Positions 15,395 to 46,910 of a DNA stretch of 60,021 nt are shown here, one piece after another. The DNA comes from a virus. Lineage: Duplodnaviria > Caudoviricetes. Where the stretch lies: positions 1 to 60,021 of the IMG/VR virus record IMGVR_UViG_3300021411_000007. One strand, given 5' to 3'. The position numbers and the translations under genes are program-made. The notes beneath the pieces are model-generated. The model was not told the DNA's origin and did not search any database. It was given only the letters and a program-made list of their open reading frames with translations. Within the stretch, counting starts at the first letter, position 1. Every line of letters starts with the position of its first letter.

Positions 15395-15499
15395 CAAATC
15401 TCGACAATTGAGGCAATGTGCCAAGATGTTTCTAGGGCTCTCAGGTGTACGATCCAAGCCCTAGAAGGATTGCTATTAGGAAGATTTAAGGAGGTGACA

Positions 15500-16597
15500 T
15501 TGACACCGCAATTTATTGACATATCACAGTGGCAACCCCAGACGATCGACTGGCAGGCATACAAGGCATGGTCAGCACAAGGCGACGGTGTGAGCAGGGT
15601 AGCCATGCGCTCTTCATACGGCACGGGCTATGCAGATACGCATTTCCAAACATATCGAAATGCTGCTCTAGTTGCTGGTATTGGACAAATCATCTACTAC
15701 CACTACAGCTATCCAAGCATAAATAATCCCGTAGATGAGGCAAAATGGCAACATGACGTTGTAGGTGATGTCAGGCCACAAGACATACTCATACTGGACT
15801 TTGAGGAGAATACTCCTAATGCTACGGGCGATTGGGCGTTCGCTTGGCTTGCTCAGCAGGAAGCGAACTATAGTGGCAAGCTTCCAGGGCTGTATGCCAG
15901 TTCTGCCTACATTCAGAGCAGATTACAGGATAGCCGACTGTCAAGATATCCTTTATGGTTGGCCAATTGGACATTTAATCCAAATACACGACCGCCTGTA
16001 CCAAGCCCATGGTCAGCATATGAAATCGTGCAGTATACGGATCACGCTACAAATGTCCCAGGCATTGGCCCAGGCAATGTAGATTGCAATATCTACCTAG
16101 GGGCAAGCATACCCCCACCAGAGGAGGACACAGTGAAAACCATAGACCTAACAGATCCGACCGTTGCATCGCATTTCACCGGAGGATCTGACATTTGGCA
16201 GTGTAAGGACAACAAGTTTCTCATTGGCCATGGCATCCTAGGCTTCTATCAGAAATTTGGAGGGGATGCACTCTGCGGACTGACCTATCTAGGTCTCCCA
16301 ACGAGCAACGAGACCGCAGCCCCAAATCATCCTGGTGTTGTCTACCAACGATTCGAGCGAGGCGCGCTAGCCTATGATGGTCAGCATACGCTCGACAACC
16401 CGCCTGCTAGTGCTGATGTCTATCTCATGCATATAGACAGTGGCTTGGGCCAAGACCCCCGTATAGCCCAGCTACAGGCCCAAATAGACACACTCAAAAA
16501 TCTGCCAGTGGTGACCAATCTTGAGCAAATCACCACTATCGGTAAACGTATTCGAGATGATGTAGATCTTGTTGTAAAGCTGGCTACAGTCATTTAG
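15500..16597 (+). CDS. Endolysin, GH25 lysozyme with LGFP-like C-terminal region
   Basis: 'IDISQWQ', 'YHYSY', 'LDFEE', 'LWLANW', 'VDCN'; AAGGAGG RBS before TTG 15500. Confidence 0.88.
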   Translation: MTPQFIDISQWQPQTIDWQAYKAWSAQGDGVSRVAMRSSYGTGYADTHFQTYRNAALVAGIGQIIYYHYSYPSINNPVDEAKWQHDVVGDVRPQDILILDFEENTPNATGDWAFAWLAQQEANYSGKLPGLYASSAYIQSRLQDSRLSRYPLWLANWTFNPNTRPPVPSPWSAYEIVQYTDHATNVPGIGPGNVDCNIYLGASIPPPEEDTVKTIDLTDPTVASHFTGGSDIWQCKDNKFLIGHGILGFYQKFGGDALCGLTYLGLPTSNETAAPNHPGVVYQRFERGALAYDGQHTLDNPPASADVYLMHIDSGLGQDPRIAQLQAQIDTLKNLPVVTNLEQITTIGKRIRDDVDLVVKLATVI

Positions 16598-16867: not shown

Positions 16868-17143
16868 ATGATAATGTATAACGGGAGTGATTCGCGTTTG
16901 GAAAGACATGAACAAATTTTAGAGAAGCTGGTTGAACAGCAAATACGGACAGAAGAGCTTTTGAAGGCAACAATCGGCCTTCAAAAAGACAACACGTCTG
17001 AAATCAAGGATTTACGAAAGGAAAGCGTCGATGTTGGAAAAATCCTAGATAAGATGGTGTGGAAATTCAACATCGTCCAATGGATTATCGTCGCTGTTCT
17101 TGCTGCTGTCATCTCTCAGATCGTACCGCATATCATCAAGTGA
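16868..17143 (+). CDS. Holin-like protein (coiled coil plus C-terminal TM)
   Basis: XhlA-like architecture in lysis module. Confidence 0.5.
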   Translation: MIMYNGSDSRLERHEQILEKLVEQQIRTEELLKATIGLQKDNTSEIKDLRKESVDVGKILDKMVWKFNIVQWIIVAVLAAVISQIVPHIIK

Positions 17144-18388: not shown

Positions 18389-19135
18389 TTGACAAAATAC
18401 GCTTATGGTAGAATAGCAGACCTTGGAGACGACAGGGATAAAAGATTTAGCATACTAGATGGCTTGTCCTTGCCTTCTAGTGTTGATTTGCGACCTGACT
18501 GCGCACCAATTGAGGATCAAGGACAGCTAGGGAGTTGTACCTCGTTCGCAACCGGAGCGGCGATTAGGTACGCTCGCAAAAAGCAAGGCTTGTCTGACTT
18601 TGTGACCTCACACCTTTTTCTCTACTACAACAGTAGATCGAAAAGTACAAAAACTGTTGATGCTGGAGCCACTATTCGAGATGCGATCAAAGCAGCAGCT
18701 AAACAGGGGGATTGCGCAGAAACCGATTGGCCGTATGACATTTCCAAGTTTGCATCAAAACCTCCTGTCCAAGCTTATCAGGACGCTCTGAAGGATCGAG
18801 CGATTAGTTATCTGAGTGTGGCCCAGGACGGCACTCAGATGAAAAACTGCCTTGCTCAGGGCTGGCCTGTTGTGATTGGCTTCACAGTATACTCAAGCTT
18901 CGAGAGCAACGCTGTGGCTCAATCTGGAGTGGTTCCTATGCCGAGCAAGAGCGAGTCAGTACTTGGGGGCCACGCTGTTTTGATCGTGGGATTTAGGGAT
19001 GATAAGCAGCAGTGGATATGTCGTAATAGTTGGGGACAATGGGGAGATCAGGGATACTTCTATATGCCATATGACTACCTGCTCAATAGGAGACTTTCGA
19101 GCGATTTCTGGACCATACGGGCGATGAGCGTTTAA
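18389..19135 (+). CDS. Papain-like cysteine peptidase (C1A family)
   Basis: 'DQGQLGSCT' (Gln/Cys), 'GGHAV' (His), 'RNSWG' (Asn). Confidence 0.92.
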   Translation: MTKYAYGRIADLGDDRDKRFSILDGLSLPSSVDLRPDCAPIEDQGQLGSCTSFATGAAIRYARKKQGLSDFVTSHLFLYYNSRSKSTKTVDAGATIRDAIKAAAKQGDCAETDWPYDISKFASKPPVQAYQDALKDRAISYLSVAQDGTQMKNCLAQGWPVVIGFTVYSSFESNAVAQSGVVPMPSKSESVLGGHAVLIVGFRDDKQQWICRNSWGQWGDQGYFYMPYDYLLNRRLSSDFWTIRAMSV

Positions 19136-24090: not shown

Positions 24091-24276
24091 CTACGCTGCA
24101 GCAGTCGTCTCAAGCAGCCTGCCCAACGTCGAACGCTTGATCCGGTAACTCTGGCGCTTGTTCTGGTGAGGTAACACTACAGCCTCTAACACGCCTGCCT
24201 TAACCCAACGACGAACCGTGGTGTCATCAACACGCAATTGTTGCGCCACTTCATGTACAGTCAATAGATCTTCCAT
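24091..24276 (-). CDS. Excisionase-like HTH (MerR/HTH_17) protein
   Basis: 'LLTVHEVAQQLRVDDTTVRRWVKAGVLEA..L...YRI'. Confidence 0.8.
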   Translation of the reverse strand: MEDLLTVHEVAQQLRVDDTTVRRWVKAGVLEAVVLPHQNKRQSYRIKRSTLGRLLETTAAA

Positions 24277-24323
24277 TGGTTTCTCCATATGAGTGTAAAT
24301 GTCAGAATTAAATGAGCGAAATT

Positions 24324-24353
24324 TTGACAATTATGTGGGCGATTGGATATACT
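24324..24353 (+). promoter_or_regulatory. Promoter at left end of the miniature element
   Basis: TTGACA-N18-TATACT followed by GGAGG and ATG. Confidence 0.6.
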
Positions 24354-24391: not shown

Positions 24392-24562
24392 AGAGGACGT
24401 GTCGGCGGGCGGCCCAGAAAGCTCAAGACCAACGGGAAAGTAGCGCTGGCCCGGCAGATGTTTGCTGACCAGAGTCATTCTATCCCAGAGATTTGTACGG
24501 CACTTGGGATCTCTCGTGCTACGTTGTATCGCTATATCAAAGAGGCTGAAACGCCCATATAA
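24392..24562 (+). pseudogene. C-terminal HTH fragment of a serine resolvase/invertase
   Basis: RGRVGGRPRKL...ARQM.....SIPEICTALGISRATLYRYI; catalytic domain missing. Confidence 0.85.
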
Positions 24563-24708
24563 TTGTCAAAATTTCGCTCATTTAATTCTGACATTTACAC
24601 CTTTGATGAAAAGACACTCAGGTCATTCAAAGATATGGTTACACTTAATGCTCTAAAGAGTACCATATCACCCAACCAATGTCAACCATACCGGTACTCA
24701 GGACAATC

Positions 24709-25186: not shown

Positions 25187-25447
25187 CTAGAGATTTGCGT
25201 CCCTTCCTCTTTCAGGCAATTCAATATCTTCCAAGCTAACCAGTCCGGTCTTGAGTGCCCAGATAGCGAGCTGTACACGTGACGTGAGTCCCAATTCTTG
25301 CAAGATATCACTAACATGCGTTTTTGCCGTTGTTGATGCTAGCCTCATCTCTAAAGCTATGGCATCATTTGTATAGCCGTGGGCTACATAACGCGCTACT
25401 TCCATTTGACGCTTCGTGAGCACAAAGTAAGCAGGTAGTGTTTTCAT
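25187..25447 (-). CDS. LuxR-type HTH regulator (stand-alone)
   Basis: 'LTKRQMEVARYVAHGYTNDAIA......T.KTHVSDILQELG..SRVQLA'. Confidence 0.85.
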   Translation of the reverse strand: MKTLPAYFVLTKRQMEVARYVAHGYTNDAIALEMRLASTTAKTHVSDILQELGLTSRVQLAIWALKTGLVSLEDIELPERGRDANL

Positions 25448-26295
25448 ACCACTTCCTCACTCAAGAACAATACTTGCTGCTTAGGTGTGGATAGAGCCTT
25501 TTCAACTTTGCGCTCATAGGCTGGTTGCGCTATCCCCCACGCGTGCTGCCGTTGTGTCAAGCCACTTTTCTTGTATGCCTCTATCCCTCTGCCTTTCCGG
25601 TCATTCCAGGCTGCGCTATCCACACTGATAATTTGCTCAGGCATGGCTTCACTGGATTGCAGATAGCCGAGTTTGACTCCCCACAAATGCACAGGCACGT
25701 CTCCCAGCTCGGTCACGACCACATTAACAACTTGCCTGATCATCTCAGCACTTGCACGTCTGCAGAGCGTACCAATCCCCACGCGAAAGGGCCGGCCTGC
25801 ATAGTGCAATCTCATCTCGTCTATGAGTGGCTTCATCTCTCGAGCATGTCGTCTGTAGTCGGCTACCTCCCAACCTTGCACAGTCGGTACCCATACCCAC
25901 GGGACGCCTCGGTAGTCATCCCAGAACCTGTAAGCCATACCTGTGGTCAACTGCTGCCTATCACGAACTATCCCAGGCTTACCCGATGTGATTTCATCCT
26001 CACAACAGTAATCCATGGTTGCAGCCCAATCTGGCTTCCAAGTGTGCAACCACTGGACATACTGCTCTGGACTATAGCGGTACTGCCCTCCCCACTTGAA
26101 GCTAGCGACAAATCCACCACAGTCAGCTGCTCGCTGACTCACATGCTCAGGCAAATTTGGCTTGAGGAGATAATAGCCTCCATCCTTTGCACTCTGCCGT
26201 ACGAAACTAGAAGCAGGTAGCAAGATTGGCACGTCAGGCATGTAGGGACGAATATCACTTGAACTAACAGTGTAGTAAAACTCAAATGTGCTCAT
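25444..26295 (-). CDS. TGT-fold, DpdA-like transglycosylase (putative base-exchange enzyme)
   Basis: DCGGF, MDYCCE, PTVQGW, GIGTLCRR, HLWGVK, SVDS motifs in TGT-family order. Confidence 0.75.
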   Translation of the reverse strand: MSTFEFYYTVSSSDIRPYMPDVPILLPASSFVRQSAKDGGYYLLKPNLPEHVSQRAADCGGFVASFKWGGQYRYSPEQYVQWLHTWKPDWAATMDYCCEDEITSGKPGIVRDRQQLTTGMAYRFWDDYRGVPWVWVPTVQGWEVADYRRHAREMKPLIDEMRLHYAGRPFRVGIGTLCRRASAEMIRQVVNVVVTELGDVPVHLWGVKLGYLQSSEAMPEQIISVDSAAWNDRKGRGIEAYKKSGLTQRQHAWGIAQPAYERKVEKALSTPKQQVLFLSEEVV

Positions 26296-26746: not shown

Positions 26747-27336
26747 GACGCCTCCTGATCCCAGAGCGTCGGTTGTGGTAGTGGCGCAGGACGACGATAC
26801 ACACCGCTTGGTAAAACCACAGGGCCAAACTCAGAGAAGATATGAGCAAAGAACTGCTCATTCTGTCCAAATTAGATGAAGCAAGTCCCCTGAATATGGT
26901 GATCCATGCTTCCATCAGGCCGATGGAACATAACCCTTGGGCAGGGAAAGCAGATCGAATAATCCCACAGAGGCTGAAACCATGATGCTTCTGTGTTCGA
27001 CATGCAGAGCAGAACAGCCTGCGCTACATTCCCGCGTTTATGCTCTTCAATCAAGCGAGCTGACCATATCGACATGTTGCTCTTGCCATTGACGCTGCCG
27101 TACGGAGGATTGAGCCATAACGGTCCAGCCCAGGGACGCTGCAGCCCATCTTGGTCTTTCGTGTAGATCCTGCTAGCCCGTACGGTCTTGTTTGCTTCTG
27201 GACAGCTAGCAGGATCGAGATAGATTGCTCCCATAACTTTACGAGCTGCCTCTACATAGGGATGAGGAGTGTACCATTCGTTTTTATCGCTTGTTTCCTG
27301 TACAGGTATCTCATCCATCTCAAACAATTTGTTCAT
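26743..27336 (-). pseudogene. Phage Dam-family N6-adenine methyltransferase with premature stop
   Basis: EWYTP, LDPASC, WLNPPY motifs; in-frame TAA at 26872..26874 where the paralogue has Tyr; homology continues to TGA at 26743. Confidence 0.8.
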
Positions 27337-27616
27337 ACAGCTTCCTCCATCGCAACTGGTAACAGCCAGTCGAGAAACGCTAACATCACCTCATAATGTG
27401 CCGACGTTCGTAGCTCAGGACGGCGTGCGACTCATCGCCTACAAATTGCGCTACGTATTTCTTGAGGATCTCATAGTTCATCCACCTGAATGCTGGTATC
27501 GTGCATCCCTGGGCAAACTTGAGAATGGTATCGATGCACTCGGGCTCTAACTCGCGGATCTCAGCTAAACGCGGTTCGTGCGCTATTGCGTCAAGTGCTC
27601 TTTGTCGTGTGATCAT
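27333..27616 (-). pseudogene. Hypothetical gene with apparent frameshift near 27425
   Basis: Alternative frame reads RPELRTSAHYEVMLAFLDWLL..EEAV and ends in an ATGA overlap with the next gene. Confidence 0.55.
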
Positions 27617-27687
27617 TTTGTCTATTTCCTGTAGTCAATGGCTATATGACTTGCTATCCAATGGTGCTACAATTGCCTTCTTCAATC

Positions 27688-27790
27688 CGGTTACGGTTAC
27701 GTTTGTTACGTTTGCTTCCTAGGAAGTTCTCTTAGTCTTTTACGTGAGGCAAAAAGGTAAAAGTAAGTGTAACAAACGTAACCGTAACCG
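27688..27790. repeat. Putative replication origin: perfect 22-bp inverted repeat of GTTAC units
   Basis: CGGTTACGGTTACGTTTGTTAC (27688..27709) and its reverse complement (27769..27790), 3 nt after the primase stop. Confidence 0.7.
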
Positions 27791-27793
27791 CCT

Positions 27794-30106
27794 TTAATCA
27801 ACGGAAATGCGGAGCCCTTCGACTCCCCGTTTTGTCTTTCCTTCAATCTTTCTGATCACTGCTACCTCATATCCCTTTGCTTTCAAGCTCTGAGAGAGAG
27901 CTTTTGGTCCCTTCGGATATTGGATATTGTTGCTTTTACACCATTCAAGGTAACTTGCTACGATTTCTTCATTAGGAGTCCAATATTGCTTATCATCCTT
28001 ACATACCTCTTCAAGCCATTGCTGGATATAGTCCAATTCCTCACGTTGTTTTTGTGTCGTTTCTGCTACTGCTTTAGGAGTGGTTAGCCCTGTAGCCCCT
28101 AGTTTATACCACTTTATAGCCCCTTGCACAGCCCAATAGAGAATAGCCTCTAGCACCTCTGGGCTTTTCAACCGCTCTTTTTTCATTTTGTCTTCATTCC
28201 CTAGGAAGCTGTTAGGGAATTCGATCACACGCACGCGGCCCCACAAAGCGTCATCCTCTGGGTCGCCATTTACGGGGTGGTTACTCATCATCCACACTTT
28301 GAACTGAGGGCGATAGCTGAAGAAGTCCTTATGCTTGAAGCATGCCCTGACCTGGTCTCCCCCAGTGAGTTGCTTGATCTTGGCAGGATTGAGCGACTGC
28401 GAGCGGTTCGACTCACTGGCGAAGATCATTCGACTAGGCTTGAGTGGCGCTAGATCGAAGTTGCTGACATCGCCCTCACGTTTAGCTGTGAAGGAATTGA
28501 AGTCAACCATGGTAGAAATTGGATCAGGCAAGAGGCGCATAAATATTTCTGCTAGCGTGCCCTTGCCACTTCTGGGAGGTCCGTAGAGGTAGAACAATAT
28601 TTCTTCTCTGGTATGACCAGTCAGGCTATAGCCCAGGGCCATTTGCAGGTAGTCAATGACCTCTTGACCACCACCTATCACACCTTGAAGATATTCAAGC
28701 AACTCGGCGGAATGACTCTGCGTGTGAGCAACTGACACGCAATAGGTAAATCTTTGCTCCCTACTATGTGGGGTAACATCGCCAGTGCGAAGATCCACCA
28801 CGCCATTTTTACAGTTGATCAGGTCAGGATTTCTATCGAATTGGTCAATACCCACACTGACCAGTGTCTTAAAGCGGTTGACGGCACCAGAAACCCGCTT
28901 TTCATCCCCTTTTGTGCATTTGACGATTGCTTCCCTGTCCAGTTTTACAGCAGCATGACGTCTGGTACGCAGTGTCTTTACTGCATACTGCTTGACTTCA
29001 GCACCTTCTGTATCCAATTCCCAATGAGTACCTGTGTACTTAAACCAGCCTCTGGCCGAACAATAGAGAAATTCTTGACCATAGAGTGCATGTAAAGCGT
29101 CTCCATTGCCAGCATCGTCGTCGGTAAATCCGCATAATTCTTCTGCTGTGACTTTTTTCTTCTCTGGTGGTGGTTCCTTGTGCCCATTCCCATTATTTTC
29201 TGGAGGTGGCTCGTCTTGAGGCGCGTAGTCCTTCCATGTAGATCGTGTGCTTGGAGGCGCGTTCCTAGGTTTCAGTATCCCCTTCTCAATCCCGCTGCGC
29301 ATGGTGGTTTGAATTTCCCGCTCAGGTAGCCCCACGCCTTGCGCAGCCGCTCCAAGCTCTTGCTCGACATAGGATCTATGGCTCAATTCGCCGCCTGACA
29401 GGAGCTGGCCGAGTGCATAGGCCGAGCGATTGAGTTGCGTATTCCTGTTACCGTTCCCTGCCATAGCCATGGTAAGCAACTCACTCTGCAAGGCACTAAG
29501 GCCATAGGGCGTACCGTAGGGGCTATCAGAAGAGGGACGAGGTAGAGGATCGGTCGTCCTTGTCTGCTTTTTCGATGATGCTCTATTCTCGCTTATTTCA
29601 TTGTAGAGAGCAAATATCTCTTCTTGTCTGTCCTCTATAGTATCAGGTGTTCCAGGGACATGTTTCCCTGTCACCGTAAAATACTTGAGATGATCGTACA
29701 TCTCAACACGTGGGTTTTCATTCTCCCTGCCTAGGAAGTTAGCAGGGATAGCGCCACGAACCCAAATGTGGACACCCGTTCCACTAGGGGAATACTCAGT
29801 GTAGCTATTGAGGCGTTCAATGATGTCCCAAGCTTCCTCAGTAAATGCATCATCAATGATGCATTTATCAAGGTCGATTCCGGTTATGCCCTGCTCTTTG
29901 ACGAATTCGAAGCCGATCCCAGCATACCAGTCTCTATTGCTGTCCCAGGTCTCTATTGCTAGCTCGTAGCTTGACCAGGACTCCGGATCGTTGCAGTCGG
30001 CACCCTTGCCTGTATGGGGATTGAGAGGGACTTTACTCTTGTGTGAATAACAGACCCATTGGGGGAATTGTTTGAGGTCTCTGAGACGTTTTACATCCAT
30101 GAGCAT
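27794..30106 (-). CDS. Primase-polymerase / D5-P4-type SF3 helicase fusion
   Basis: 'GIDLDKC', 'TEYSPSGTGVH'; D5_N 'LINCKNGVVDL'; Walker A 'GPPRSGKGT'; 'IKQLTGGD'. Confidence 0.92.
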   Translation of the reverse strand: MLMDVKRLRDLKQFPQWVCYSHKSKVPLNPHTGKGADCNDPESWSSYELAIETWDSNRDWYAGIGFEFVKEQGITGIDLDKCIIDDAFTEEAWDIIERLNSYTEYSPSGTGVHIWVRGAIPANFLGRENENPRVEMYDHLKYFTVTGKHVPGTPDTIEDRQEEIFALYNEISENRASSKKQTRTTDPLPRPSSDSPYGTPYGLSALQSELLTMAMAGNGNRNTQLNRSAYALGQLLSGGELSHRSYVEQELGAAAQGVGLPEREIQTTMRSGIEKGILKPRNAPPSTRSTWKDYAPQDEPPPENNGNGHKEPPPEKKKVTAEELCGFTDDDAGNGDALHALYGQEFLYCSARGWFKYTGTHWELDTEGAEVKQYAVKTLRTRRHAAVKLDREAIVKCTKGDEKRVSGAVNRFKTLVSVGIDQFDRNPDLINCKNGVVDLRTGDVTPHSREQRFTYCVSVAHTQSHSAELLEYLQGVIGGGQEVIDYLQMALGYSLTGHTREEILFYLYGPPRSGKGTLAEIFMRLLPDPISTMVDFNSFTAKREGDVSNFDLAPLKPSRMIFASESNRSQSLNPAKIKQLTGGDQVRACFKHKDFFSYRPQFKVWMMSNHPVNGDPEDDALWGRVRVIEFPNSFLGNEDKMKKERLKSPEVLEAILYWAVQGAIKWYKLGATGLTTPKAVAETTQKQREELDYIQQWLEEVCKDDKQYWTPNEEIVASYLEWCKSNNIQYPKGPKALSQSLKAKGYEVAVIRKIEGKTKRGVEGLRISVD

Positions 30107-30147
30107 ACACGCTTTCTATGCATACCCATATCTAGATACAGCAGACC

Positions 30148-30177
30148 TTGCCAAAATATAAATGTCTGCTGTATACT
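30148..30177 (+). promoter_or_regulatory. Antisense promoter within the primase leader
   Basis: TTGCCA-N18-TATACT, overlapping an 11-bp inverted repeat (30136..30146 / 30164..30174). Confidence 0.55.
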
Positions 30178-30183
30178 TGAGAT

Positions 30184-30299
30184 GGGCAGGGACTTCCAAG
30201 GGCTGCTTCTTCTAGGGTTCCAATCTGTCAGAAGTAGCCTAACTGCTACAAAGAAAATTTTTATTGTCCTATGCCAGCACGACGCTGGCTTTATTTTTT
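30184..30299 (+). ncRNA. Putative counter-transcribed (antisense) RNA to the primase leader
   Basis: Promoter upstream, 11-bp stem 30200..30240, terminator GCCAGC-N5-GCTGGC plus T-tract at 30273..30299. Confidence 0.55.
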
Positions 30300-30473
30300 G
30301 TCTTCTTCCCTGTCGATGTACTCTCTCAGATCCTCTTGTTTCACTTTCCAGTTCCTGCCAATCTTCTTGGACTTTATCTCCCCACGTTTGCACATCTCTC
30401 TGGCAGTGTACTCGGATATTCGGAGGATGCGAGCTACGTCTTCGATTGTAAGCAATTCTTCCACAGCGATCAT
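30291..30473 (-). CDS. Small HTH_17 DNA-binding protein (cop/excisionase-like)
   Basis: 'LLTIEDVARILRISEYTAREMCKRGEIKSKKIGRNWKV'. Confidence 0.8.
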   Translation of the reverse strand: MIAVEELLTIEDVARILRISEYTAREMCKRGEIKSKKIGRNWKVKQEDLREYIDREEDKK

Positions 30474-30502
30474 AATATCTCTCCTTTCCTAAGTCTCGCC
30501 AC

Positions 30503-30531
30503 ATCATACCATACTGCTCGGGACAAATCAA
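30503..30531 (-). promoter_or_regulatory. Promoter for HTH-primase operon
   Basis: TTGATT-N17-TATGAT with TGn extension. Confidence 0.55.
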
Positions 30532-30745
30532 CACCATTCGTGTGATGCTCGTATAGTAGCTAAGCTCGCAATTGTGCGTAGCAATTCCTTGTGTAACATT
30601 CCTAGAACGTGTGTTCATGCTTGTTGACTCTCTTTCCACATTTGAATGATATACAGGACATATAGTGGATTATTGATGCAAAGATCCCTAAAATACCTAT
30701 CATGTGAAACGAATTGTATAGTCAGGTCTGCGCCTGTTGTGTAGT

Positions 30746-30931
30746 TCATGTCGTTGTCTCCTTTGTGCTCATAGCACGCTCACGTATACTGCGCAGATAT
30801 TTCCCGACTGTCCCAGGTGAGATGCCGAGCTGAGCGGCTATTTTGTCGTTCGTCAATCCGCTCTCACGTAGAGCTTTCACCTCAATCTCTCTAGGTGAGA
30901 GTAGCGTCTTGTCTGGTTTCTTGCTACCCAT
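30746..30931 (-). CDS. LuxR-type HTH protein
   Basis: 'LSPREIEV.....GLTNDKIAAQLGISPGTV'. Confidence 0.8.
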   Translation of the reverse strand: MGSKKPDKTLLSPREIEVKALRESGLTNDKIAAQLGISPGTVGKYLRSIRERAMSTKETTT

Positions 30932-31157
30932 GTCGTCGTCCTTTCTGTGTCTGTACCCAATCGATCAGTCGGCAGTAGTGGCATATCCGTTGCTCAACTG
31001 AATGGCAACCATGCCAATAGCAAATAGGGGTCTCACACTTCGCACATGTGCCTTCTGCTTTTCGCGTGCAAAGTGTCTTCTTGCAGGCAGGGACTTGATA
31101 GTCGAGCATGGATGTGCCGTTGTAGATCAAATAGCGTTTAGTTATGCTCTCGTTCAT
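30924..31157 (-). CDS. Cys-rich Zn-finger protein
   Basis: CxxC/CxxH clusters. Confidence 0.5.
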   Translation of the reverse strand: MNESITKRYLIYNGTSMLDYQVPACKKTLCTRKAEGTCAKCETPICYWHGCHSVEQRICHYCRLIDWVQTQKGRRHG

Positions 31158-33285: not shown

Positions 33286-33895
33286 GATAGAGGCTTATCA
33301 TATGCTTGAGAATGAACGGTTGTCAAGGAAGAAATGCTCATTTCATCAGAGGAGGCATGAATTGAACGGAGAGCACGAACAAGCCCTATATAAGTCTGAG
33401 ATTATCTGCGATAGAGCACACATTCTTTTCGGACTTATTCTGAGGCTCTTGTGCCAGCGGGCCAACGTTACACAAGACGAACTAGAAGAGAGAGGAAAAG
33501 CGTATAGAGACTATTTGTTTATTCAAGGCTATATTAAACCTGGGCACGTGTTAGGCAGCCTCGATCAAACGATCATATCACGTGTGGTAAGCGGTGAAAG
33601 GCGTCCTTCGTATGATCAAGTAGCGATTTGGCTCAAAGTCCTAGAAGACACATATAAAAGCGATGCATATAAGAATGAGAGAAAGCGGCGAGGCTTGACA
33701 ATTTATAATTTGTCTACGGATCTCAAAAGGGATCTGTATCATCTGGCAGGCTTCGGAGCGCCAGACGAGATTGTAGCAGCCTTTGAGAAGTTGGCACTCA
33801 TGCCAACAGAGCCACGCAGTCGAGGGACTTCTAGCAAGCGAACGAATGGCAATGGCAATTATGTAGGGAATCCAGTACCACAAGAGGAGATTTAG
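33284..33895 (+). CDS. XRE-like HTH regulator with insertion
   Basis: 'FG.ILR.L...ANVTQDEL...QTIISRVVSGERRPS'. Confidence 0.65.
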   Translation: MIEAYHMLENERLSRKKCSFHQRRHELNGEHEQALYKSEIICDRAHILFGLILRLLCQRANVTQDELEERGKAYRDYLFIQGYIKPGHVLGSLDQTIISRVVSGERRPSYDQVAIWLKVLEDTYKSDAYKNERKRRGLTIYNLSTDLKRDLYHLAGFGAPDEIVAAFEKLALMPTEPRSRGTSSKRTNGNGNYVGNPVPQEEI

Positions 33896-34095
33896 AAATT
33901 GAAAAGGTCTTTGACTTGGATATCCAATGCTTGGGCGATCCTCTCAAGTCGGTCAAATTCGGGAGCGACTTCTGCATGTTCCCATCGATACACAGTGTAT
34001 GCCGATACGCCGACTTTTTCGGCAAATCTTTCTTGAGAGAGGTTCTTGTCTTTCCGCAGCTTCCTAATACGGTTGCCAAATAAGTCTCTAAGCAT
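33892..34095 (-). CDS. XRE-family HTH regulator
   Basis: 'FGNRIRKLRKDKNLSQERFAEKVGVS..TVYRWE'. Confidence 0.9.
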   Translation of the reverse strand: MLRDLFGNRIRKLRKDKNLSQERFAEKVGVSAYTVYRWEHAEVAPEFDRLERIAQALDIQVKDLFNF

Positions 34096-46014: not shown

Positions 46015-46302
46015 GTGAAGAGATTTGGCTTGCCCACGTTTCCAATCGCCGATTCGATGCTTGTAGGTAAGCGTCCTATGGACGAGTTGCAATTCTTGAT
46101 CGATAACGGCTTCTTTACCTCCTGGTCTAACCATCACCTCATTGTAAAGCTTCCTAATGGTATTTACAGGCTGTACCGCAACACGCAGCCAGTAGGCCAA
46201 ATTGAAGCTGAAGCAGCAACACTTGACGAGCTGATACGGGACAACAGCATACCAATTGCGCTGTACCAATGGCATGATGACAGAGGTGAGGATTTGGCAT
46301 GA
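46015..46302 (+). CDS. Hypothetical protein
   Basis: Operon-packed. Confidence 0.5.
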   Translation: MKRFGLPTFPIADSMLVGKRPMDELQFLIDNGFFTSWSNHHLIVKLPNGIYRLYRNTQPVGQIEAEAATLDELIRDNSIPIALYQWHDDRGEDLA

Positions 46303-46910
46303 GTACGCTATTTGATATGGGAGATATCCCAGAACAAGAGGGGAAAAGCAACGAATGGTACACACCATACATGTACATAGAAGCTGCAAGAGAAGTTATG
46401 AACGGTATAGACTTAGATCCTGCCTCTTGCGAGATAGCAAATAGGACTGTGAAAGCAGCTAGATACTATACCAAAGAGGACAGCGGTCTAGATCATGAGT
46501 GGAAGGCTAATAGTGTGTGGCTCAATCCCCCATACGGGCGCGTTCACCCTAAATTAAAAGGGTCTACAAACAGCTATCAAGTCCATTTCATGCAAGCCTT
46601 GCTATCCAATTACAGAGCAGGGAAAATAGAACAGGCAATAGCACTAGTGTTTGGTACATCGCTTTGCATGCCTTGGTTTCATCCTTTTCTAGATTTCCCT
46701 ATGTGTATAGCAAGGCTTGGGATCAGATTTAATACACCCTCTAATAGAGAAGCATACTTTGGCTATGGTAACGTCTTCGTCTACCTCGGACCTCATGAGC
46801 AGAAGTTTACCCAAATCTTTAGCCAGTTTGGAAGGATAGCCAAGGCTATTGATATCCCCAAGCAGCCACTACCACAACCGACGCTCTGGGATAGAGAGGA
46901 TGCCATATGA
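46299..46910 (+). CDS. Phage Dam-family N6-adenine methyltransferase (intact)
   Basis: EWYTP, IDLDPASC, WLNPPYG motifs. Confidence 0.88.
   Translation: MSTLFDMGDIPEQEGKSNEWYTPYMYIEAAREVMNGIDLDPASCEIANRTVKAARYYTKEDSGLDHEWKANSVWLNPPYGRVHPKLKGSTNSYQVHFMQALLSNYRAGKIEQAIALVFGTSLCMPWFHPFLDFPMCIARLGIRFNTPSNREAYFGYGNVFVYLGPHEQKFTQIFSQFGRIAKAIDIPKQPLPQPTLWDREDAI

Follow-up and report, generated by a model that had tools for sequence, protein, structure and literature searches.

A predicted antisense RNA in the leader of a primase-helicase gene and a candidate replication origin in a soil tailed phage

The linear virus record IMGVR_UViG_3300021411_000007, a single contig of 60,021 bases that we analysed over its whole length (hereafter the window), is a complete tailed phage from soil metagenomes, and its region 27688..30531 is the head of the replication operon of this phage. 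On the minus strand the region carries a promoter-like site, a gene for a small helix-turn-helix (HTH) protein, a leader, a gene for a fused primase and superfamily 3 (SF3) helicase and an inverted repeat (Table 1). Our main finding is that a unit on the plus strand within the leader, at 30148..30299, is very likely a real gene for an RNA of ~115 nt, judging from the conservation and covariation that it displays in other phage contigs. We propose that this antisense RNA closes a hairpin at the start codon of the downstream gene and that the inverted repeat serves as the replication origin, a reading that, taken as a whole, we hold to have slightly the better chance of being right.

The individual elements had been listed in an earlier sequence-only reading of the same DNA, and all of them are present: the promoter-like site, the 60-aa HTH gene, the leader, the TTGCCA-N18-TATACT promoter on the plus strand, the 11-bp stem-loop and the terminator whose T-tract serves the plus strand only, a separate 11-bp hairpin closer to the primase gene, a primase-helicase of P4/D5 type (D5_N, DUF5906 and TIGR01613 are all matched), and the inverted repeat, which makes a good origin candidate. 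Conservation and covariation in relatives also bear out the claim that a real countertranscript unit sits in the leader between the HTH gene and the primase-helicase gene. From these elements and from a missing integrase, the same reading had drawn a plasmid-type copy control and a phage-plasmid replicon, which fared less well (see below).

Table 1. Positions of the features discussed, first in the region under study and then in the rest of the window
Feature	Position	Strand	Basis
Promoter-like site of the HTH_17 unit, TTGATT-17-TATGAT, TG-extended	30503..30531	-	9/12 consensus positions
Gene for 60-aa excisionase-family HTH_17 DNA-binding protein	30291..30473	-	Pfam HTH_17, E 3e-16; TIGR01764
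Sense leader of downstream gene, 184 nt, target of the predicted antisense RNA	30107..30290	-	sequence, alignment
Terminator GCCAGC..GCTGGC (intrinsic), hairpin 30273..30289 plus T-run to 30299	30273..30299	+	sequence
Stem-loop 1, 11 pairs, 19-nt loop	30200..30210 / 30230..30240	+	covariation
Predicted antisense small RNA, ~115 nt	30184..30299	+	5' end inferred from -10, 3' end at T-run
Core of upstream leader segment, UGCCCAU, inside antisense target	30182..30188	-	minimum-energy fold; inference
Antisense promoter TTGCCA-18-TATACT	30148..30177	+	10/12; best promoter-like site in 27400..31000
Sense-leader hairpin, 11 bp, arms 30136..30146 / 30164..30174	30136..30174	-	unique in window
Predicted start-codon hairpin; ATG 30100..30098 pairs with upstream UAUGGGUAUGC; purine-rich loop resembling a Shine-Dalgarno sequence	30098..30130	-	folding
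Fused primase / SF3 helicase, P4/D5 type, PriRep-like, 770 aa	27794..30106	-	D5_N + DUF5906
Origin candidate; perfect 22-nt inverted arms 27688..27709 / 27769..27790, three GTTAC units each	27688..27790		59-nt spacer, 63% A+T
Tail and tape-measure genes	0-15 kb	+	Pfam/PHROG
GH25 endolysin and holin	15-18 kb		Pfam/PHROG
Leftward module with primase-helicase, DpdA-like gene, Dam-like methylase and two GerE regulators	19-33 kb		Pfam/PHROG
XRE-type HTH	33892..34095		Pfam/PHROG
Rightward module with RecT	after XRE-type HTH		Pfam/PHROG
Terminase, portal and major head protein	50-60 kb		Pfam/PHROG

A putative antisense RNA gene within the leader

Between 27400 and 31000 we counted 8 promoter-like sites against 5.3 expected and 5 terminator-like sites against 3.0, both near expectation, and in the whole window 2 units that combine a promoter with a terminator, against 0.6 ± 0.7 (maximum 2) in 20 dinucleotide shuffles. 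The promoter-plus-terminator unit by itself is thus not decisive, and it is conservation and covariation in relatives that lift it above chance. Its terminator overlaps the last 9 nt of the HTH open reading frame (ORF), in which the final Lys codons and the stop codon also specify the U-tract of the RNA, and it would act on the plus strand only, since the same hairpin read on the minus strand is followed by ATAGGAC.

The same cassette was found in nine other phage contigs (L020/L021, L022, L023, L024, L031, L032, L034, L040 and, partly, L017). A search with the HTH protein had led to L020/L021, L022, L023 and L024, and a search with the terminator as a DNA motif to L031, L032, L034 and L040 together with three unrelated terminators (L035, L038 and L039), which we discarded. 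On the antisense strand, a -10 and a -35 element occupy the same alignment position in 10/10 family members: the -10 matches TATAAT at 5 or 6 positions in every one of the ten (TATACT in five, and TATTAT, TACAAT, TATCAT, CATAAT and TATAAT in one each), and the -35 begins with TTG, at a spacer of 16-18, again in all ten.

The antisense RNA aligns over ~120 nt in the nine full-length members, for which RNAalifold returned one 11-pair stem-loop followed by the terminator. The layout of the RNA is that of a 5' tail, one long stem-loop with a conserved single-stranded motif after it, an A/U-rich linker and the terminator. We tested for pairing the structure that we had stated ourselves, and not the RNAalifold output alone, and found that 93.9% of the cells in the whole structure are paired, compared to 73.1 ± 2.4 in shuffles (0/500 as high) and 27-44% in slid controls, with a covariation score of 0.678 versus 0.257 in shuffles (0/500 as high). 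Within stem-loop 1, 97% of the stem cells are paired and 9 of the 11 pairs have changes on both sides, as many as in 14/500 shuffles.

The wobble pairs point to the strand on which stem-loop 1 is made. Its 99 cells comprise 79 Watson-Crick pairs, 17 G.U pairs and 3 mismatches when read on the antisense strand, whereas the same columns on the sense strand give 79 Watson-Crick pairs, no G.U pair and 20 mismatches, all 17 wobbles having become A.C; because of this asymmetry we assign the stem-loop to the antisense strand. The terminator, with its T-run on the antisense strand, is conserved in 7/9 aligned members, L023 and L024 having another hairpin instead.

A covariance model (model R1) built from the family alignment located a sole copy in the window, at 30178..30299 on the plus strand with 109 bits, and recovered all members as well as L017, the latter as a truncated match; the discarded L035 and L039 reached at most 27 bits and L038 gave no match. 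Rfam 15, run over the whole window at gathering thresholds, returned 0 matches, and with E up to 5 it returned 4 in 27600..30700, none of them in the leader. Conservation and covariation indicate that the antisense RNA very likely represents a real, new family of a known kind that is absent from Rfam 15. The arrangement is no artefact of assembling one sample, as 29104..30619 is also covered by a ~95% identical contig from a soil run of another study. This contig lacks 3 nt at 30250-30253, the very place at which the window is three bases longer than every other member.

Two side observations concern such units more generally. In run X4, the terminator part (30259-30306) of the antisense RNA is all that two contigs match, at a summed depth of ~185; ahead of 30259, their sequence is similar to the 3' stem-loop arm and to the linker. 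They probably represent a further member of the RNA family that is abundant in that soil sample. The only other unit in the whole-window scan in which a promoter (10/12) is followed by a terminator to give a 50-200-nt transcript lies at 17112..16949 on the minus strand, antisense to a small ORF (16868..17143) of the lysis region, and may be a chance occurrence.

A predicted start-codon hairpin in the sense leader and a proposed mode of action

The 11-bp hairpin at 30136..30174 encloses the antisense -35 and lies upstream of the start of the antisense RNA, hence as RNA it would exist only in the mRNA. In most relatives its place is taken, as seen by eye, by a hairpin with 4-7 bp and a 7-17-nt loop, and such variable arms and loops fit an RNA hairpin better than a fixed operator; an operator common to this hairpin and the HTH promoter was looked for by eye and not found. 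No U-run follows the hairpin, which is therefore not an attenuator of the Inc18 type.

The last 33 nt of the leader fold into a second hairpin in which the start codon pairs with a CAUGGG-like stretch, the conserved primase start probably being ATG 30100. In the window this start-codon hairpin is predicted at -13.8 kcal/mol on the sense strand versus -3.2 kcal/mol for its reverse complement, with 5 G.U pairs, and it is stabler on the sense strand in 10/10 members, 27 of the 109 pairs being G.U. The AUG is paired in 9/10 short folds and, in the case of L031, in a longer fold, and the RNAalifold consensus of the 3' leader retains the outer 7 pairs. With stem-loop 1 assigned to the antisense strand only and the start-codon hairpin to the sense strand only, the cassette would hold two single-strand structures on opposite strands.

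A long-range pairing may connect the two parts of the leader. When the free window leader is folded to minimum energy, UGCCCAU (30188..30182) pairs with AUGGGUA in the 5' arm of the start-codon hairpin, and this pairing extends the 30136..30174 hairpin and frees the start codon. Across the family, the duplex between upstream segment and arm is predicted to be more stable for cognate partners (mean -14.8 kcal/mol) than for non-cognate ones (-11.3 kcal/mol), none of 20000 permutations being as low, and masking the antisense target lowers the predicted accessibility of the AUG in 6/9 leaders, in the window from an unpaired probability of 0.39 to one of 0.18. A direct pairing of the antisense 5' tail with the start codon, which we considered as another candidate, gave -8.6 (cognate) versus -7.5 kcal/mol (non-cognate), with 1123/20000 permutations as low. 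The 5' end of the antisense RNA is placed ~78-85 nt upstream of the primase start, and the ribosome-binding site of the primase gene is not overlapped. Because folding and covariation favour the long-range pairing and a direct pairing with the start is unsupported, we propose that the antisense RNA acts indirectly.

We also looked by eye for a leader peptide like tap of plasmid R1 and rejected it: complementarity to CAUG accounts for the (A/G)UG-GGY mini-ORFs of the hairpin arm, which have no consistent Shine-Dalgarno sequence. No sense-strand promoter was seen inside the leader, either by eye or in the list of promoter-like sites.

In the mechanism that we draw from folding and covariation, the promoter would drive the HTH_17 gene, the 184-nt leader and the PriRep-type primase-helicase gene, and the antisense RNA would be complementary throughout to the leader's 5' two thirds. 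As long as the leader is free, the segment inside the antisense target would pair with the 5' arm of the start-codon hairpin and leave the start codon open; binding of the antisense RNA, with a first loop-loop contact at the stem-loop, would then sequester this segment, the start-codon hairpin would close and translation of the primase-helicase would drop, RNase III cutting of the duplex being a possible addition. Since the dose of antisense RNA would climb with the number of templates, the outcome would be a negative feedback on the initiator, in other words the logic of plasmids R1 and pMV158 in the form of a portable phage cassette.

The cassette and its neighbouring genes

In the ten contigs the leader aligns as a single block that begins at the upstream gene's stop codon and reaches the start codon of the gene that follows, whatever that downstream gene may be. 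The upstream gene encodes an HTH_17 protein in 8/9 contigs containing that region and an unrelated 70-aa protein in L040, and the HTH protein of the window is 52-85% identical to its relatives in L020/L021, L022, L023 and L024, where promoter-like hexamers were also seen by eye at the same place 5' of the HTH gene. A profile search added a single HTH relative (L030, 32% identity), which we rejected: it gave no match to model R1 and has no cassette.

The window and L017 have the primase-helicase as downstream gene, L017 being a contig with a 71% identical primase relative that ends 173 nt upstream of the gene and holds the 3' part of the leader. Elsewhere, the cassette precedes other genes, initiator-like ones among them: a 380-390-aa protein (L022, L034 and L040; in L022 a DnaC/IstB-like loader comes after it, and the L034 protein has a weak HTH_36 match), a protein matching DnaD-like and O-like PHROGs (L031), a 98-aa and then a 518-aa protein (L020), DNA methyltransferases (L023 and L024) or an HNH-AP2 endonuclease (L032). 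The L032 endonuclease gene (950-1708) lies directly after the cassette, at the conserved start codon, and resembles the result of a homing-endonuclease insertion that separated the leader from its original downstream gene.

The HTH ORF of the window scored 40.4 bits against TIGR01764, the excisionase-family domain (cut-off 28.8). The CopG, CopR and CopB families were not matched, the protein matching only HTH_17 (TIGR01764) and excisionase-type PHROGs. The ORF stands directly upstream of the primase-helicase gene on the same strand (-), in the place of a putative repressor gene cotranscribed with the initiator gene. A second excisionase-family HTH_17 gene (24091..24330, minus strand) is one of two divergent ORFs at a 52-nt inverted repeat (24293-24344 / 24549-24600; arms 96% complementary and 204 nt apart). 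In both arms there is a stretch with TTGACA, together with the 13 initial codons (MSKFRSFNSDIYT) of one of the two ORFs. As the genome has no recombinase, we favour for this repeat a divergent promoter region that was duplicated over an invertible switch.

The primase-helicase and a candidate origin

The primase-helicase scored 199 bits against TIGR01613, the C-terminal domain of P4-family primases (cut-off 108.7), and its best solved relative is 7OLA/7OM0 (for PDB 7OLA, E 9.8e-20 over residues 9-174 and 418-662). The 7OLA structure is that of PriRep5 from the Staphylococcus aureus pathogenicity island (SaPI) SaPI5 (PMC9371898). In a protein search of the phage collection, the window primase was <30% identical to primases of phi105, A2 and staphylococcal type.

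We retrieved relatives of the primase from 3 viral contigs, 15 metagenome contigs and 1 weak genome match (L004, irrelevant), 19 loci altogether. By BLAST, none of the 19 loci contains the HTH gene or the leader, and L017 alone was found to have the cassette, by covariance model. In L003, L005 and L019 the primase gene has its own promoter and, before it, a divergent gene for an XRE-type repressor, and in L008/L009, L013 and L014 it follows other small genes and a same-strand terminator; as these upstream regions differ, the linkage of HTH gene, leader and primase gene is not a trait of this primase family. The conservation in relatives that could be expected of the arrangement was thus found for the cassette, in nine other contigs, and not for the HTH gene and leader at the primase loci. 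In the closest full-length primase relatives, the primase gene is the first in a unit divergent from an XRE-type repressor gene, an order that indicates direct repressor control and not the antisense cassette. The intergenic region of L003 (2822-2985) has TTGACA-17-TACAAT flanked by repeated TGCAATATTGCA palindromes, with equivalents in L005 and L019.

The inverted repeat of the window starts 3 nt after the primase stop codon, and an inverted repeat is found at the same place in 7/10 distinct primase relatives, with arms of 9-29 nt and spacers of 43-77 nt; L013, L015/L016 and L017 have iteron runs on one side only, and L018, in which the reading frame at the primase end is unresolved, was left out of the count. 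The units that make up the arms differ by lineage (GTTAC, CTTACA or CATACA) and covary with a C-terminal segment of the protein, which reads [IVQ][RK]K[IV] with GTTAC (6/6), SKWG or VKFV with CTTACA (2/2) and SQYI with CATACA (2/2). L001, which is 70% identical to the window in the C-terminal domain, differs exactly at this segment. Origins of SaPIs are described as lying directly downstream of the rep ORF, with 6-12 penta- or hexanucleotide iterons and an AT-rich centre, at least two iterons per side running in opposite directions, and as being bound by the C-terminal winged-helix domain of the protein (PMC9371898). By analogy, the inverted repeat of the window is likely a replication origin with GTTAC iterons, and the opposed iterons around its AT-rich centre would be bound by the C-terminal domain of the primase-helicase as in the PriRep/ori pair of SaPIs.

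Genome context and lifestyle of the phage

CheckV puts the completeness of the record at 99%, and five soil metagenome runs contain the record or part of it, all of them DNA and none RNA. The window has a G+C content of 46.8%, and Pfam and PHROG scans mark it as a tailed phage in which terminase, portal, major head, tail and lysis genes are all found (Table 1). A DNA search among 50,697 phage records returned no close relative, and the terminase of the window is at most 37% identical to terminases of actinobacterial phages. The endolysin (15416..16597) combines GH25 with an LGFP repeat, and a gene for a papain-family (C1) peptidase (18389..19135) comes after the lysis genes; together with the distant actinobacterial terminase matches, these two enzymes hint at a soil host of Gram-positive type. 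A DpdA-like gene (PF23859, E 2e-13; annotated in PHROG as queuine tRNA-ribosyltransferase) and two Dam-like methyltransferase genes (25444..26295, 26872..27336 and 46299..46910) suggest DNA modification, possibly of the 7-deazaguanine type.

As had been claimed from the sequence, the window has no integrase: in six frames we obtained no match to tyrosine recombinases (PF00589) or serine recombinases (PF00239), nor to ParA-type ATPases (PF13614), and of 89 window ORFs scanned with Pfam none fell into a partition or protelomerase family. The lack of an integrase is real, yet it is no proof that the region is a plasmid replicon. Tyrosine integrases of 325-360 aa are carried by 5/5 of the cassette-bearing viral records tested, none of which has a serine recombinase. 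Two primase-relative records were searchable: that of L003, whose primase is 67% identical to the window's, also carries a tyrosine integrase (325-360 aa), and that of L001, which is 87% complete, has no integrase. Because of the integrases in the records of relatives, we regard the cassette and the PriRep/ori module as being at home in integrating temperate phages. The GC skew of the window tracks gene orientation only and is uninformative on the origin.

Weighing of the readings

Several points weigh against the reading that we favour. Antisense transcription, the ends of the RNA and the effect on the primase are predictions from sequence, and the origin, well supported as it is, rests on an analogy and on covariation in 10 sequences. 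The family sequences are related (the window and L034 share stem arms, L017 and L032 the upstream segment), hence the shuffle tests overstate their independence. In the consensus start-codon hairpin only 1/7 pairs has a two-sided change and the variation is mostly one-sided, as the AUG is fixed; the window's own cognate duplex, at -11.5 kcal/mol, is not the best in its row; and in 3/9 leaders (L020, L031 and L032) the start-codon hairpin is predicted to be closed with or without the antisense RNA. The cassette also precedes methyltransferases (L023 and L024) and an HNH-AP2 endonuclease (L032), and so it does not strictly control replication genes. Finally, the identities of RNA and HTH protein are uncoupled (window versus L034, 71% for the RNA and 30% for the upstream protein; window versus L020, 47% and 78%), which leaves a joint circuit of protein and RNA unproven.

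Of the alternatives, one keeps the antisense RNA and moves its main role elsewhere, to the 3' end of the HTH mRNA in the manner of OOP, to host or phage targets in trans or to immunity or exclusion exerted by the prophage against superinfecting relatives. The single-stranded motif conserved after the stem-loop, the A/U-rich linker, the overlap with the HTH stop codon, the temperate, integrase-bearing relatives and the phage precedents OOP and sar (PMC5869508, PMC5415839) speak for such a role, which we nevertheless think unlikely, as only 9 nt are shared with the HTH ORF, compared to the 52 nt shared by OOP and cII, the leader is kept as one block up to the start codon of any following gene, and the covariation between upstream segment and hairpin ties the antisense target to the start-codon hairpin. 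It is very hard to believe that there is no antisense RNA at all, the plus-strand terminator serving only to shield the HTH gene against stray antisense transcripts, the promoter being a chance match and the stem-loop acting in the mRNA as a processing or protein-binding site. Such a state of affairs would agree with a promoter-terminator unit that is within the range of shuffles, but not with a stem-loop whose 17 wobbles all read G.U on the antisense strand and would read A.C on the mRNA, with antisense -10 and -35 elements retained in 10/10 members despite different sequence variants, or with a T-run on the antisense strand in 7/9. The inverted repeat, in turn, might be a transcription terminator or an RNA hairpin instead of an origin: it sits at a gene end and can fold, and Rfam matches nothing there but MIR2670, a model of a plant microRNA precursor, at chance level with 25.8 bits against a gathering score of 117. 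We consider this improbable, since no T-run that would mark a terminator was found at the repeat, its arms consist of opposed 5-6-nt units around an AT-rich centre, the arm sequence shifts by lineage together with the C-terminal protein segment, and the plan matches that of experimentally studied SaPI origins.

The sequence-only reading had seen in the region a plasmid-type copy-number control, with Cop repressor, antisense RNA, Rep and ori, by which the phage would persist as a plasmid prophage. Neither tyrosine nor serine recombinase is found in a record that is 99% complete, the gene order matches that of R1 and pMV158, and autonomous replication is conceivable in principle for a self-loading primase-helicase that has an origin next to it; going by the title of a 2007 paper by Ubeda, SaPI replicons have reportedly been described as replicating like unstable plasmids. 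On the other side stand the missing ParA-type ATPase, the lack of partition or protelomerase families among the 89 ORFs scanned, the cassette in 5/5 integrase-carrying records, the integrase in the record with the 67% identical primase relative (L003), an HTH protein of the excisionase family and not of a known Cop family, and the cassette before non-replication genes in 3 contigs. In our judgement a plasmid prophage of this kind has little to recommend it, and the step from layout and missing integrase to a phage-plasmid is not supported. What survives of the proposed cop/antisense RNA/rep control is the logic shared with R1 and pMV158, an antisense RNA that would throttle the first replication gene; the Cop-type repressor, an overlap with the ribosome-binding site and an attenuator do not. 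A more far-reaching idea, to which we give only a slim chance, is that of a portable translational switch, in which an antisense RNA opposes an activating long-range pairing, that is swapped before any initiator and that in the window sets the copy number of an extrachromosomal prophage without a partition system and with a self-loading PriRep/ori.

We return to the reading that we favour, an antisense RNA that would close the start-codon hairpin at the head of a replication operon, with a likely origin after the primase-helicase gene. If correct, it adds a new covariation-supported RNA family from uncultured soil phages, with a strand assignment and a testable start-codon hairpin mechanism, and it extends the PriRep/origin plan of SaPIs to full-size soil phages, in which the covariation of protein and DNA points to a putative specificity segment. 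It also makes a plasmid-like cop/antisense/rep layout an unsafe marker of a phage-plasmid. Literature searches aimed at this combination of elements, supplements aside, returned nothing relevant.

Comparison with known systems

Among known systems the closest layout is that of plasmid R1, the origin of which lies downstream of the initiator gene. In R1, copB, tap and repA are described as cotranscribed, and CopA, which overlaps the intergenic region, influences repA translation by an indirect route (PMC5717011). Like R1, the window has a gene for a small DNA-binding protein upstream of the initiator and a leader countertranscript placed well upstream of the start (PMC5717011, PMC5415839). Unlike R1, to which there is no relation in sequence or family (HTH_17 versus CopB, PriRep versus RepA), it has no convincing leader peptide and no second promoter on the sense strand of the leader, the element is a tailed phage, and its cassette moves between downstream genes.

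RNAII of pMV158 covers the initiation signals of repB, whereas the antisense RNA of the window stops ~78-85 nt short of the start codon. CopG is a ribbon-helix-helix protein, and the HTH protein of the window differs from the repressors of pMV158 and Inc18 in being of the excisionase family. The order of a small repressor-type gene, an antisense RNA and then rep is common to the window, to copG-RNAII-repB of pMV158 and to copR-RNAIII-repR of the Inc18 plasmid pIP501, as these are outlined in PMC5717011 and PMC5415839. RNAII is described as binding the copG-repB mRNA and blocking translation of repB (PMC5717011), and pIP501 as acting by premature termination, or attenuation (PMC5415839), whereas the hairpin before the start in the window has no U-run. 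The portable switch to which we gave a slim chance would resemble the pseudoknot-activated rep genes of plasmids of the IncB and IncI groups.

Few cis-antisense RNAs are, to our knowledge, documented in phages, namely OOP, sar and a handful more; oop lies between cII and the replication gene O, and sar in the arc-ant intercistronic region. OOP of lambda is reported to run leftward from pO to the tO hairpin, to overlap 52 nt at the end of cII and to act on the cII mRNA (PMC5869508), and sar of P22 is listed among phage antisense controls (PMC5415839). Both resemble the RNA of the window: they are small phage RNAs, antisense in cis, and each has a promoter and a terminator of its own. In contrast to OOP, the window RNA overlaps the HTH ORF by 9 nt, its conserved partner is the leader of the downstream gene, and there is no sequence similarity or Rfam match.

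For the primase-helicase and its origin, phage P4 and SaPI5 are the systems to compare. The alpha protein of P4, an initiator that binds repeats in its own origin, is similar in that the window protein has the C-terminal domain of P4-family primases (TIGR01613); ori and crr of P4 are not known to lie directly after the alpha gene, and P4 immunity works through a processed CI RNA from the sense strand and is not known to use a countertranscript. With PriRep5 of SaPI5 the window shares a homologous primase/SF3 helicase, a candidate origin right after the ORF and opposed penta- or hexanucleotide iterons with an AT-rich centre (PMC9371898); recognition by the C-terminal domain, as described for the island in the same paper, would by analogy be expected of the window protein too. 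The window differs from it in being a full-size phage and not a satellite island, in its GTTAC iterons and in a protein identity that is low and confined to two stretches.

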